Shown here piece by piece: positions 9,001 to 57,580 of a DNA stretch of 64,000 bases. Origin of the DNA: Octopus vulgaris (Eukaryota); NCBI GenBank assembly GCA_951406725.2, contig OX597836.1:11718001-11782000 (forward strand). Reading direction: 5' to 3'. The notes under the pieces are model-generated. The model was not told the origin of the DNA. It searched no databases and saw only the letters and a list, made by a program, of their open reading frames with translations. Numbering within the stretch: position 1 is the first letter of the stretch; the number at the start of each line of letters is the position of its first letter. Position numbers and translations under genes: made by a program.

Positions 9001-9133
9001 ATGTGACAATTATTCGGTAGCCAAAATAAAACTCTGAGTTTCGGGTGCCGAGGTGGAAATCCACACCACAATCTCTTCAGTTATCCCCCTCGGCATCCGA
9101 AACTCAGAGTTGGCTACCGAATAATTGTCACAT
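9001..9133. mobile_element. Short inverted-repeat element with hammerhead, in (TA)n/(CA)n
   Basis: ATGTGACAATTATTCGGTAGCCA...ACTCTGAGTTTCGGGTGCCGAGG mirrored by CCTCGGCATCCGAAACTCAGAGT-TGGCTACCGAATAATTGTCACAT. Confidence 0.72.
9026..9084 (-). ncRNA. Type-I hammerhead motif, canonical core
   Basis: ataa CTGAAGA ...GTGGatttCCAC... GAAA CTCAGA GTT ttat: stem I ATAA/TTAT, near-palindromic ACTC-A-GAGT. The base of stem II pairs imperfectly. Confidence 0.62.
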
Positions 9134-9907
9134 ATTACACACACACACACACACACATATATATATATATATATATATATATATATATATATATATATAT
9201 AGAGAGAGAGAGAGAGAGAGAGAGAGAGAGAGATACGACAGACTTTTCACACTGTTTCCGACAACCATATTCACTCACAAGGTATAGATCGGCCCAGGAC
9301 TATTGTAGAAGACATTTGCCTAAAGTGCCGTGCATTTGGACTGAACGTAAAACTGCGTTGTTGCAAAGCGAGGTTCGTAACCACACAGCTACGCCTATAT
9401 AGATCTATTTTTTATTCCAAAAATCAAAAATTCTCCTATTCAGGCGCAGATGCAGGCACTGGTGTAGGCTATGTGGTTAAGATGCTCACTTTACAACCAT
9501 GTGATTTCGGGTTCAGTCCTACATAGCGCCGGTTCGACTAATTTCTTGTCATTTTGGTGGGCGAAAATTGTATGGAAGCCCATCGCGTGGTGGCTATATT
9601 TGTCACCCCACACTGCTTGGTAACCAGTGTTGGTTTGTTTATGTCTCCATCACTTAGCTGTTCGGTCAAAGAGACTGATAGAATATGTACAAGACTAAAA
9701 ATAAAACAACTGCTGGGGGGGTCGATTTGTTCAAGTTAAGCCTTCAAGTTGGTGCTCCAGCATGGCTGCAGTCTAATCACTTAGAGAAATAAATAAAAAA
9801 AATAATAACGCTCTACTACCCGCTTCGCTAATGGCTGCCAAACATGGTAGCATTTTTGTTTCTCCCTTTTTAGTAAAAACCACTTGTCCATCAGCATCTT
9901 TACTTCT

Positions 9908-10224
9908 GGTAGAGGCACATGGCCTAGCGGTTAGAGCAGCGAACTCGCCGTCGAGGGACCGCGGGTTCGAATCTCAGACTGGGCGATGTGTGTGTTTATG
10001 AGCGAAAACACGTAAGCTCCATGCGGCTCCGGCAGAGGGTAATGGTGAACTTCTGCTGACTCTTTTGTCACAACTTTCTCTCACTCTTTCCTCCTGCATC
10101 TTGCAGTTCACCTGCGACAGACCGGCGTCCCGTCCAGGTGGGGAACCTATATGCCAAGGAAACCGGGAAACTGGCCCTTTTATGAGCCAGGGATGGCTCG
10201 AGAAGGAACAAACAACAAAAACAA
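9908..10224 (+). mobile_element. tRNA-derived SINE (octopus OR-type), full length with 12-bp TSD
   Basis: A box TGGCCTAGCGG, B box GGTTCGAATCT, (AAC)n tail. TSD ATCTTTACTTCT at 9896-9907 and 10225-10236. Confidence 0.9.
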
Positions 10225-10729
10225 ATCTTTACTTCTAAATTGATGCTATGAAATAAAACAAATGCCGGGGGTCGATTTGTTCAAGTTAAGCCTTCAAGTT
10301 GGTGCTCCAGCATGGCTGCAGTCTAATGACTGAGAGAAATAATAAAAAAAAAATAACGCTCTACTACCCGCTTCGCTAATGGCTGCCAAACGTGGTAGCA
10401 TTTTTGTTTCTCCCTTTTTAGCAAAAACCATTTGTCCATCAGTATCTTCACTTCTAAATTGATGCTATAGAATAAGATAAATATTTCCAGACGCCAACTT
10501 CGCAAATTGCATCAATTGGATAGCTTCAAAGATAATTCGACTGAGGAAGATCGAATTATCTATCGTGATTATCCGCAATCATTACATGACGACAGGGTAG
10601 AATGATTCCAAGACAATTATTGCATTGTCTGTTCCAGTTTGGTTATGGCAACCTGTTTGAAGTTCTGCTGGTCGATTACGAAGACAATTTGCATAATATA
10701 GGAAACAAACCACTGAGGGAGAAAATGGC

Positions 10730-11955
10730 AGTGACGCCACAATGCGATATTGACTTCTCAGCAAACAAGGCTTGTGGTTTTATATGACAGTATTGGAATT
10801 CTTACCCACCTCATTGAGATGGAAGGACAAATAGTTTTGTTTGTTTTGCTACCGTTTTCTCTAATGAGCGAATGATGACACAATGCAAAATAAGTTTCGT
10901 GGTAAAGAACACTTATAATGTTATCAAAAAGAATTCGATTCTTACCCCATTCGATAATCAGATGGAAATATTAAAAATGGTTTTGTCCGATTTTCTAATG
11001 CTATATAAGTTTCGCAGAAAACAACGTTTGCAGTGTTTTCAAAAAGTATTGCATTCTTACCTCAATCACCAATCAGATTGAAGCATTTAACCCTTTTGAA
11101 ACCAACCCGGCCAAAACCGCCTCTGGCTCTGTAGTACAGATGTTTTACTTTCATAAGTATTGAATTAAGATCTTCCACAAAACCTTAGTCACAATTTATG
11201 TTCCTAACACTAGCTTAATAATAACTAAGTTTTTTACAAAATTCTTTGTTATATTTAAAATTAATTGAAAGAAACACAGAGCATCTCTACAGAGATATGG
11301 TAACAAAAGGCATAAAAGCACTCGTGCTGGTGCCATGTAGAAAACAGTAGTGATGGTGCCACATTAACCCTTTTGATACCAACCTGCCTGAAACTGCCTC
11401 TGGCTCTGCAGTACAAATGTCTTGTTTTCAAAAGTTCTGAATTAAGATATTCCACCAAACCTTAGTCACAATTTATGTTCCTAACACTAGCTGAATGATA
11501 ATGAAGTTATTTTCCTAAATTATTTGTTATATTTAAAATTAATTGAATGAAACACAGAGCATCTAAAAATAAATACGGTAACAAAAGGGTTAAAATGGTT
11601 TTGTCTGTTTTTCTGCCATCTTTCTCCAATGATGTCACAATATGACATAAGTTTAGGAGAAAAACGACGCTTGTCGTGTTATCGAAGAGTATTAAATTCT
11701 TACCCCTGCACCAATCGGATGGAAACACTTACAAATAATTTGGTTTCTCTTTTTACCGTCTTTCTCCAACGAGCCAACGATGCCACAATGCGATATAAGT
11801 TCTGCAGCAAACAATGCTTGCTTAAAGAGTATTCGATTCTTACCCCACTCACCAATCAAATGGATGCACTTAAAATGGTTTTGCTTGACTTCCTAACGTC
11901 TTTTTCCAGTGCTATATGCTTCGCGGCAAATAACGCTTGTGGTATTACATGGTGA
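10730..11955. repeat. Diverged tandem repeat (~105-150 bp units), interrupted by piggyBac MITEs
   Basis: Recurring ATTCTTACCC...(CCAATC)RGATGGA...AAATGGTTTTG...ATAAGTTTCG at ~10798, 10938, 11053, 11696 and 11836. Confidence 0.75.
11091..11589. mobile_element. Tandem pair of piggyBac-type MITEs (11091-11310 and 11368-11589)
   Basis: TTAA|CCCTTTTGATACC...GGTAACAAAAGGG|TTAA, with TTAA at 11087-11090, 11364-11367 and 11590-11593. The two ~220 bp copies align along their length. Confidence 0.85.
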
Positions 11956-12296
11956 TCTCATATCAAGATAAGCAGCGCATGACCTTGCAGGTGGGGCCCA
12001 GTTGGAATTTTTTTCTGGTTGAGTAACCCATTCCGCTCAAAAGGTCCCTGAATAAGGGTTGTTTAAGGATGTTGAACGAAACGCCCATTTTTCCAGGGGT
12101 GAATTATTCAAACCCCAAAGAATCCCTCTCAACACACGGCTATGATGCTCCCCCACTACTTCTGCTCGTGAGCATATCCACTGAGGGTCATGCTCAACTG
12201 GTTAAGGTAAAAAAACTGACAAGCAAATCTGAGGTATTGAGCAGAATAATTGCTGTAGCCCATCTTTAATACTATATCATTACAATTATTATTATA

Positions 12297-55370: not shown

Positions 55371-56150
55371 TGCTGCTGCTGTTTAGTCTCAGGTGTCGAA
55401 GACAATGGAATTAGCTGAGATGGTCAACATTGTTAACCGAAGAGAGAAAATTGAACACAGCACTGGAAGATTGCGCAAAAAAACAAAAAACAAACAAAAA
55501 CACTTTGAAGCGTTGAACGTGGTAGGACAGCTTATGAACGTAGGTCTATATGTGTAGATGGAGGCGCAATGGCCCAGTGGTTAGGGCAGCGGACTCGCGG
55601 TCGTAGGATCGCCGTTTCGATTCCCAGACCGGGCGTTGTGAGTGTTTATTGAGCGAAAACACCTAAAAAAAGCTCCACAAGGCTCCGGCAGGGGATGGTG
55701 GTGATCCCTGCTGTACTCTTTCACCACAACTTTCTCTCACTCTTACTTCCTGTTTCTGTTGTACCTGTATTTCAAAGGGCCGGCCTTGTCACTCTCTGTG
55801 TCACGTTGAATATCCCCATGGTTCCGGGTTCAGTCTCACTGCGTCGCACCTTGGGTAAGTGTCTTCTACTATAGCCTCGGACAACCAAGCCTTGTGAGTT
55901 GATTTGGTAGACAGAAACTGAAAGAAGCTTGTTGTATATATATATATATATGTATGTGTATATATATATATATATATTTAAATATTTGTTGTGCAAGATT
56001 TTTTATGTGAAGTCGTGTGTTGAAACATATATTGTTATATTTCGGAATGGTCATATTGCCAGTTTAGCCAATAAAAACACACGCACTATATATTTGGTGT
56101 TATTTTGCTTCAGTGATATTTATTTTTTACATTAATCTTAATCTTATTTC

Positions 56151-56195
56151 GGCCAAAGTTCTTTCGTCACACTCCTGTGACCGCATCAGTGGTCC
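56151..56195 (-). ncRNA. Inverted identical copy of the A9C hammerhead variant
   Basis: Reverse complement of 57075-57119, within the long inverted duplication. Confidence 0.62.
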
Positions 56196-57074
56196 TTTGT
56201 TTTCTTCTCACTTACTTGTGTCTCTCCTTACTAACCGTCAGCCATTTTGTATTTCTATTGTATGTCTTCATTTGCGCATGCTTATATCTCTATGTGCGTC
56301 TATGTTTATTTAGTGTGTGGGGGGGGATGCCTGTAATATTTGTATCTTCTGGTTATATACATTCTTGTAATTTGTATTTTGTTTTTGTTGCTGTTGCTTT
56401 TGTTCTAATTTTGTTCATGTGTTTACATCCACCCATTATTATCATTACATATGCTTGTATGTATGTATAACAACAATATTAGTAATAATAATAAATCTAA
56501 TCGAGAAAAAAAAAAAAAAAAAAAAGAATATACATATACATATATATATATATACATACATATACATATACATATATATATATATACATATATACACACA
56601 TATATACACATATACATATACATATATATACACATATACATATATATAGATATTCATTTCTATTTCTTTAATTACCTGTGTATTTATTATGTTTGCAGGA
56701 TCCACTATTGTCATATGTTGTGGTGTGCGCTATTGCTCCATTCTAGTTTTCTTTTTTTCTCGATTAGATTTATTATTATTATTACTAATATTGTTGTTAT
56801 ACATACATACAAGCATATGTAATGATGATAATGGGTGGATGTAAACACATGAACAAAATTAGAACAAAAGCAACAACAACAAAAACAAAATACAAATTAC
56901 AAGAATGTATATAACCAGAAGATACAAATATTACAGGCATCCCCCCCACACACACACTAAATAAACATAGACGCACATAGAGATATAAGCATGCGCAAAT
57001 GAAGACATAAAATAGAAATACAAAATGGCTGACGGTTAGTAAGGAGAGACACAAGTAAGTGAGAAGAAAGCAAA

Positions 57075-57119
57075 GGACCACTGATGCGGTCACAGGAGTG
57101 TGACGAAAGAACTTTGGCC
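57075..57119 (+). ncRNA. Minimal hammerhead variant (A9 to C)
   Basis: ggacca CTGATGC g GTCACA ggag TGTGAC GAAA GAAC TT tggcc, with a perfect 6-bp stem II. Confidence 0.62.
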
Positions 57120-57580
57120 GAAATAAGATTAAGATTAATGTAAAAAATAAATATCACTGAAGCAAAATAACACCAAATATATAGTGCGTGTGTTTTTATT
57201 GGCTAAACTGGCAATATGACCATTCCGAAATATAACAATATATATATATATATATATATATATATATATATATATATGTATGTAAGTGTATGTATGTGGG
57301 GGTCTTTGTTCTGTGTTTGTTCCCGGTGTTGGTATGTTTACGCACTCATAACTTAGCGGTTCGGCAAAAGAGAACGATAGAATAAGTACGATTTGCTCGA
57401 CTAAAGGCGATGCTCCAGCATGGCCGCAGTCAAAAGACTGAAGCAAGTAAAAGAGTAATAGAGAGTAAAGGGTATATATATGTATGTGCATGTATAAGGA
57501 TGTATATATATATTGAATCGTTAGCCCCTACACGCAATTTTTTTCTCTCCTTGTTTCTCTCTTTGTTTCCTTTCTGTGTA

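Follow-up and report, generated by a model that had tools for sequence, protein, structure and literature searches.

Four foldback elements are present in a 64 kb stretch of the Octopus vulgaris genome (assembly GCA_951406725.2, contig OX597836.1, positions 11,718,001 to 11,782,000 of the forward strand), and their inverted arms are considered here as candidate ends of Penelope-like elements (PLEs). The whole stretch, referred to as the window, is AT-rich and dense in microsatellites; counts of copies, reading frames and ribozyme sites given below refer to it. The foldbacks are located at ~9.0 kb (locus A), ~28 kb (locus B), ~51.5 kb (locus C) and 56-57 kb (locus D), and each was verified by self-BLAST (E values from 2e-21 to 0) where an initial annotation of the DNA had placed it. 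Within each locus the two arms are near-identical: those of A (~8999-9053 and 9088-9135) differ by 1 substitution and one 7-nt indel, those of B (27958-28104 and 28193-28339) by 1 mismatch in 147, those of C (51433-51546 and 51555-51668) by 2 mismatches in 114, and those of D (56027-56517 and 56747-57243) are 97.97% identical over 492 nt. An assembly artefact was rejected as the source of the foldbacks, since the arms are not identical, the flanks are unique and C carries a target site duplication (TSD).

When the arms are oriented by the hammerhead-like fold that they contain, the 3' ends point outward in 4/4 loci. The outward orientation of C and D is given independently by an ATG-started frame that is open to the terminus. 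The head-to-head arrangement originally proposed therefore holds at every locus, as does the proposal that one arm extends further to a terminus in three of the four; this one-sided extension, or tail, measures 88 nt in B, 72 nt in C and 49 nt in D, and A has none.

At locus A the long arm (8999..9087, minus strand) contains both hammerhead core boxes (the first at 9080-9073; cleavage nucleotide 9030), a 4-bp+1 palindromic stem III and an irregular stem II. Its 5' end coincides with the foot of stem I, and its 3' end is located 31 nt past the cut site, within a TA run. The short arm (9088..9135, plus strand) begins 11 nt ahead of GAAA and has the same terminus as the long arm; the 7-nt deletion takes its stem I 3' strand. 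Locus B consists of a tail-less short arm (27958..28104, minus) that begins 2 nt ahead of GAAA, a long arm (28105..28339, plus) whose hammerhead is complete, with a U3 core at 28149 and the cleavage nucleotide at 28206, and the 88-nt tail (28340..28427, plus), which terminates at a TA run. The left flank of B (27915-27946) gives a 32-nt match at 97% to 38560-38591, a repeat end adjoining a TA run, and as judged from this match the insertion site of B may have been the end of a different element.

Locus C is bounded by a 12-bp TSD (51420..51431 and 51741..51752). The arm with the longer 5' reach (51433..51554, minus) is tail-less, reaches the stem I foot and contains a hammerhead-like fold whose first core box is non-canonical. 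The short arm (51555..51668, plus) begins within the first core box and contains stem II, the GAAA half and codons 1-8 of an open reading frame (ORF; ATG at 51645), with codons 9 to ~31 located in the 72-nt tail (51669..51740, plus). The 49-nt tail of locus D (55978..56026, minus) terminates at a TA run and, read from an ATG at 56054, completes 26 codons homologous to the start of the C-family ORF. The left arm of D (56027..56529, minus) contains a hammerhead with an A9C change (core at 56189, cleavage nucleotide 56156), and the tail-less right arm (56744..57243, plus) contains a second (core at 57081, cleavage nucleotide 57114). The intervening spacer (56530..56746, minus) is made up of a 125-nt TA/CA microsatellite and 92 unique nt; with a minus-strand A content of 0.47, as compared with 0.50 for the D sense strand, it probably continues the left arm upstream. 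On the plus strand, spacer positions 56655-56698 resemble a pyrimidine tract plus 3' splice site, which could reflect chance or captured host sequence. Read inward, the left arm of D ends in AATAAA followed by A22. An orientation of D by this poly(A) was rejected: both arms go on with GAA past the A-run, which is counted as internal because of this continuation and because the ribozyme, the ORF start and the A-rich strand agree on the outward direction.

Support for the hammerheads differs between search methods. Rfam reported 0 hammerheads over the window at its gathering score, and none was found among the best 150 of 399 matches at E<=10. A strict descriptor gave 5 matches, corresponding to B, both D arms and two unrelated sites, and missed A and C; shuffled sequences gave 0-3 matches each. 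With a relaxed score, which was devised after the loci were known, 6/289 sites reached >=8.5, all within A-D and one of them an artefact bridging both A arms, against a null mean of 0.7 per 64 kb at >=8 (30 shuffles). Every genuine site in the four loci faces outward. The core boxes of A are perfect and stems I and III are present; B has a U3 core variant (U3-A8) of a kind known from Schistosoma PLEs (PMC4209133); both arms of D have A9C; and the C core is changed at positions 3 and 8, as a result of which C may be cleavage incompetent. Only the C fold is stronger than its shuffles (z -3.63, as compared with -0.92 for D, +0.41 for A and +0.78 for B). A minimal type I hammerhead with a palindromic stem III near the 3' end is thus clear in 2/4 loci and present in relaxed form in 4/4, so that the initial annotation, which had placed hammerheads in all four, was correct as to relaxed-form folds and too strong as to their quality, given the Rfam result, the non-canonical C core and the irregular stem II of A. 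Three other sites (48449, plus; 61047, minus; 13809, minus) have a perfect first core box and a downstream GAAA with weak stems, and their scores of 6-6.5 are in the chance range.

The ends of C and D contain the start of an ORF. The outward frame of C from the ATG at 51645 is open to the end of the tail, and open too in a lone copy at 59342-59447. It corresponds to residues 1-29 of the partial O. sinensis gene model LOC115227545, with 26/29 residues identical. A second database protein also starts with the C peptide and has ~150 residues in common with the O. sinensis model, the two being near-identical; by this comparison, the C peptide is predicted to open an ORF, common to both database proteins, that is ~150 codons or longer. 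A different frame of the C tail gave no protein match, the homolog having come with the ATG frame; of the 8 matches from a profile search, 7 consisted of several short stretches and were left unused. The 26-residue peptide read through the D tail from ATG 56054 (minus) aligns without gaps to C residues 6-27 with 9/22 identical, an alignment reached in 2/20000 shuffles, and is the best non-C match in six frames of the window (42 vs 35). From these homologous peptides at their ends, C and D appear to be distant relatives that both end within an ORF start. The initial annotation had described the elements as unrelated, which is accurate at the DNA level, where 10/10 pairs among A-D and a fifth foldback (locus E, 20351-20480) show no similarity beyond the range of shuffles, and inaccurate for C and D at the level of the encoded peptides. 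In C numbering, the tail-less ends of C and D are located at codons ~8-12 and the tail ends at ~29-31 (with TA-run ambiguity in D), a register that suggests a link between the two start sites and a feature conserved at the beginning of the ORF. No ORF start was seen in A or B.

Residues 223-311 of the O. sinensis model correspond to a PRMT3-like methyltransferase, and LOC115227545 is probably a prediction chimera resulting from an intronic insertion, with exonisation as the alternative. Residues 197-222 may be similar to the GxKF region of the PLE N-terminus, a likeness drawn by eye, and no library recognized the ORF as coding for a PLE protein. Peptide motifs gave 0 matches to the PLE consensus supplement (PMC8557442), in which one GxKF context resembles residues 197-222 by eye alone. 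The sole reverse transcriptase (RT) match among 195 non-repetitive frames of the window belongs to a separate long interspersed nuclear element (LINE) at 34875-36404.

Two of the families have a further copy in the window. The lone B-family copy (2094..2147, minus; 85% over 55 nt, E 2e-10) is 5'-truncated, shares its 3' terminus with the B tail and contains no inverted arm or ribozyme. The lone C-family copy (59342..59447, minus; 90% over 103 nt) is also 5'-truncated, is located in a TAA run and has the C tail terminus and the same open frame, with no ribozyme. No lone copies of A or D were found, giving 0-1 further copies per family in 64 kb, and no direct-repeat (head-to-tail) copy was found adjoining any locus. 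The 12-bp TSD of C is AT-rich, with a chance expectation of 248/143950 random position pairs. Termini are located 3-6 nt from a microsatellite for 2/2 ends of A, 2/2 ends of D, the B tail and the lone B copy, as compared with a background of 767/17644 within 15 nt; the TA runs at the ends of A, B and D make TSDs unreadable there. In contrast, an element at 23559-23979 has perfect 28-bp terminal inverted repeats (TIRs) starting with GG, an 8-bp TSD and a few internal TTAGGG repeats, and is presumably Merlin-like. The fifth foldback (20351-20480) has arms of ~62 nt at 90% identity with a 3-nt loop, contains no hammerhead and is located beside TA/TG runs, with a possible ~85-nt extension toward a microsatellite, to ~20266. 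It showed no tie to A-D in 10/10 comparisons and has no second copy in the window.

The four hairpins are very probably 5'-truncated ends of PLEs, and we place at roughly three in four (~0.75) the probability that each locus represents one insertion of an endonuclease-positive (EN+) PLE, cut down to two 5'-truncated 3' ends joined head to head. A retroelement origin is supported for B, C and D because of their asymmetric termini, the lone 5'-truncated B and C copies, the C TSD and the ORF start in C and D; it is likely for A, which has a Hydra-type ribozyme and symmetric ends in a TA run. Ribozyme architecture and the (TA)n target suggest a resemblance to the Hydra clade for A and probably for B. 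C and D, we infer, are families of a different type that have diverged from each other, and in this type the end holds the first codons of what would be a PLE ORF. Because the inverted arrangement, the one-sided tail and pairs of ribozymes on opposite strands have already been published for PLEs, the geometry is not new, and the loci most likely represent new cases, from an octopus, of a known PLE arrangement. The initial annotation had favored a product of reverse transcription over a MITE (miniature inverted-repeat transposable element); this is supported for B, C and D and likely for A, although that annotation had not named the family and the arrangement it described was already on record for PLEs.

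The competing identity, in which long TIRs would mark the loci as MITEs or foldback DNA transposons and the ribozyme-like motifs would be due to chance, is very improbable. The symmetric ends of A with TA on both sides, the concealment of any TSDs of A, B and D in TA runs and the lack of Rfam hammerheads would all be compatible with it, but the asymmetric ends of B, C and D, the one-ended lone copies of B and C and the ORF start at the ends of C and D are not, and the true TIR element in the window looks different. Judged within the window, the comparison of ends that had been proposed for the MITE alternative thus separates B, C and D from such elements and leaves A symmetric; the MITE identity is rejected for the first three and unlikely for A. 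A Helitron-type origin for C, considered on account of a terminal hairpin in its tail, was set aside given the 12-bp TSD and the ORF start. The initial annotation had attributed the arms to 5' inversion or twin priming. L1 twin priming generates two non-overlapping fragments with an internal deletion, whereas dual priming involves two RNAs at two nicks (PMC2837659), and by that definition twin priming is the wrong model, because the arms duplicate the same 3' end. Extremely improbable, then, is an origin from a polyadenylated LINE through 5' inversion or twin priming of the L1 type, or by two independent insertions, with D as a tail-to-tail pair. The inward-reading AATAAA and A22 of the D left arm would suit such a pair, but that A-run is internal, the three other marks of orientation point outward, and the arms of each locus copy one segment with no terminal poly(A). 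Abundant repeats can form inverted neighbors, as in the window do SINE-like (short interspersed nuclear element-like) heads at 38660-38721 and 39005-39066, which are 97% complementary and stand back to back across a TA run. The present families, however, have at most one other copy in the window.

Several observations weigh against a PLE origin by dual priming. A has symmetric ends, TA on both sides and no second copy, and its end differs in sequence, by eye, from the Octopus Hydra consensus end. C is not beside a microsatellite, and its core is unlike any hammerhead variant found described in the literature searched. The tails of 49-88 nt exceed the published 30-40 nt. Six 12-14-nt motifs from the loci gave 0 matches to the PLE consensus supplement (PMC8557442), and the first 222 residues of the O. 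sinensis model have no match in Pfam, NCBIfam, PDB or Atlas. A Pfam search of the 195 non-repetitive frames of >=55 aa linked no PLE domain to the loci, with no RT or GIY-YIG at any of them, although the missing RT and GIY-YIG ORF is expected of truncated ends. The C-D peptide test was post hoc and concerned 22 residues. Finally, a single arm carries both the tail and the farther 5' extension in B, and also in D provided that the spacer is part of the left arm, a configuration that equally fits fold-back of a single cDNA.

The 5' ends were mapped relative to the cleavage nucleotide. They are located at -57 and -23 in A, -101 and -13 in B, -41 and -33 in C, and -370 and -373 in D (or -590 if the spacer joins the left arm), with the lone copies at +42 and +169. 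Self-cleavage was rejected as the maker of the 5' ends because 0/10 are at the cleavage site, in agreement with the finding that ribozyme cleavage is dispensable in vitro for Anolis PAc (PMC11167929). Beyond core position 3, the long arms overshoot by 7 nt in A, 44 nt in B, 5 nt in C and 337-557 nt in D. The presence of 3/4 loci within 45 nt has P 0.053-0.144, with ascertainment included and the exponential mean fitted to the same four loci, which had been chosen for holding a ribozyme; P would be 0.01 were the true mean 300 nt. For 2/4 long arms within 10 nt, P is 0.02-0.05 at mean overshoots of 100-150 nt, a post hoc comparison. The breakpoint was originally said to leave one arm with the GAAA/NUH half alone, which is the case in A and B but not in C, whose short arm retains stem II in full together with a portion of the first core box. 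The related proposal of clustering or pausing at the ribozyme is matched by the three loci with nearby breaks and not by D and both lone copies, which break elsewhere.

We lean toward dual priming as the route to the head-to-head arms. The RT-endonuclease would nick both strands of an AT-rich target, and from each 3'-OH the same stretch of RNA would be reverse-transcribed, with initiation at one or the other of two internal sites, of which the far site would give a tail and the near site none. Both cDNAs would stop early and be joined through 2-3 nt of microhomology, leaving 3' ends outward, a tail on either arm and a TSD if the nicks are staggered. Junction microhomology of 2-3 nt is visible at C and D and possible at A and B. 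In the in vitro work on PAc, both target strands are cleaved and extended with the same RT start sites on each, and two RT start sites within the ORF bracket the tail, with RT starts 111-118 nt into the ORF (PMC11167929); by analogy, dual priming at the octopus loci and this both-strand priming would be the same event. At C one arm carries the tail and the opposite arm has the longer 5' reach, the stem I of this tail-less arm being completed by the 8-nt loop. Simple fold-back of a cDNA is excluded for C because that stem I could not have been templated by a cDNA started at the tail.

The same PLE origin could also be combined with self-priming, in which a cDNA or antisense RNA template folds back and is copied into the second arm. 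This is possible but doubtful. Junction palindromes and self-priming of an antisense template are the proposal of Arkhipova et al. 2013 (PMC3846280), and in keeping with it B and probably D carry the tail and the longest 5' reach on one arm, 5-bp hairpins are located 24 nt from the A junction and at the B junction, and arm identity is 98-99% in B, C and D. C, however, leaves only the antisense-RNA version with later trimming, and the in vitro priming occurs from both target strands (PMC11167929). On top of either dual priming or self-priming, the ribozyme fold might set the breakpoints, through RT pausing or fold-directed joining. The long arms of A, B and C end just upstream of core position 3, and the short arms of A and B end at the 3' side of the stem II helix, where RT would meet it. 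Against this, D breaks 370-590 nt upstream, the lone copies break downstream, no end is at the cleavage site, and the C short arm goes past stem II; in A and C the long arm ends at the stem I 5' foot, where RT would be leaving rather than entering the fold; the A, B and D folds are no stronger than shuffles; and the ribozyme-free foldback at 20351-20480, for which no PLE link was found, may be a filtered-out case. The evidence for a ribozyme effect is therefore suggestive only, and we consider the effect rather unlikely. Still less likely, and offered as speculation, is a broader scheme in which PLEs routinely dual-prime, start sites stay in ORF register across C and D, and the role of the hammerhead is not to cut but to form a structural barrier at which both cDNA ends are concentrated. 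If that were true, arms would halt at the stem I foot and in stem II, the ribozyme would shape short hairpins that are filed as MITEs, and its retention in PLEs would be non-catalytic, in line with the altered cores of C and D. A literature search that mostly covered papers open without subscription found none that applies dual priming to PLEs, and none that maps PLE inversion breakpoints on the ribozyme or RT pausing there.

The window contains other repeats in addition to these loci. A broken LINE C-terminal region at 12940-13921 (minus), in which 12940-13500 matches an Octopus bimaculoides protein at 89% identity, is presumably of the restriction-like endonuclease type (Dong/R4). The LINE fragment at 34875-36404 (plus; 510 codons, RVT_1 and zf-RVT), with related short pieces near 32345-32454 and 45046-45159, we take to be Tx1-like. 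Four tandem copies of a SINE-like head of 143-144 nt, with mutual identity of 97-99%, occupy 41345-41916. An abundant repeat with partial tandem copies of ~216 nt is present at 17349-17801, 25017-25890, 30134-30689, 53154-53797 and elsewhere, with no hammerhead scored inside it, and 10733-11908 contains degenerate internal repeats flanking a 232-nt direct repeat (11087-11317 and 11364-11595, 86%).

A head-to-head inverted 5'-truncated copy, a one-sided tail and a bias toward microsatellites are stated features of PLEs (PMC8557442; PMC8969392), and for O. vulgaris, Penelope families with recent activity, 30 in number, have been reported (PMC13282606). In Adineta vaga, the pseudo-long terminal repeat (pLTR) of Penelope holds the first 12 aa of the ORF, or 22 with the tail, and the head-to-head arrangement is the commonest (PMC3846280). 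The Penelope/Poseidon-type elements described there (Pen2a and Pen3a) and Anolis PAc (PMC11167929) are similar to C and D in the inverted 5'-truncated copy, the optional tail, an ORF start within the pLTR or tail, a ribozyme upstream of the termini, a TSD of ~8-12 bp and an AT-rich target. They differ in that only ends remain at the octopus loci, in tails of 49-72 versus 30-40 nt, in the altered cores and in the position of the ATG, which follows the cut site by 57 nt in C and by 102 nt in D but precedes it by 26 nt in PAc (PMC11167929).

For the Hydra clade, 20/21 Repbase families and 6/6 new families are listed as (TA)n-targeting, and one has an attached 5'-truncated inverted copy (PMC8557442). 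Its members in that report, such as Hydra-1_Obim of Octopus bimaculoides and Penelope-13_HM, resemble A and B in an 8-nt first core box, a 4-bp palindromic stem III with a 0-1 nt loop, cleavage after U or A, a short distance to the 3' end in (TA)n and, in that one family, the inverted copy. Cleavage in A would be after U, with the end 31 nt past the cut as compared with 36 nt in the Octopus Hydra consensus, a comparison made by eye between differing sequences. A motif search gave no match of A or B to the listed consensus ends, nor did a comparison by eye with Hydra-1_Obim; stem II is irregular in A and long in B, and B ends 133 and 221 nt past the cut. The Hydra clade is also marked by features of its ORF (RWK, DKT, a CxCX5C linker and no CCHH), and A and B are without an ORF.

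In Schistosoma PLEs, ribozymes were reported in 2014 to occur as pairs, one on each strand and separated by 100-700 bp (PMC4209133). These Cercyon elements, read as truncated PLEs, are like the present loci in having opposite-strand ribozymes a few hundred bp apart, with U3-A8 as in B; they differ in that the D pair is ~900 bp apart and one ribozyme is incomplete in A-C. Dual priming as discussed for L1 (PMC2837659) likewise places two RNAs at two nicks to give inverted 3'-end copies inside a TSD, but there it is speculative and tied to poly(A), whereas initiation here would be internal and the arms long. The non-LTR (long terminal repeat) retrozymes (bioRxiv 10.64898/2026.07.22.740005) are similarly non-coding and PLE-derived with a type I hammerhead, and are described as head-to-tail tandem units, in contrast to the inverted pairs found here without a tandem copy. 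Taken together, the loci add octopus members to the PLEs and call for caution in MITE annotation. Short foldbacks of this kind provide a countable readout of tail side, longer-reach side and stop positions, which bears on the route of PLE inversion and on the role of a ribozyme whose function in PLEs has been called unclear (PMC8557442).

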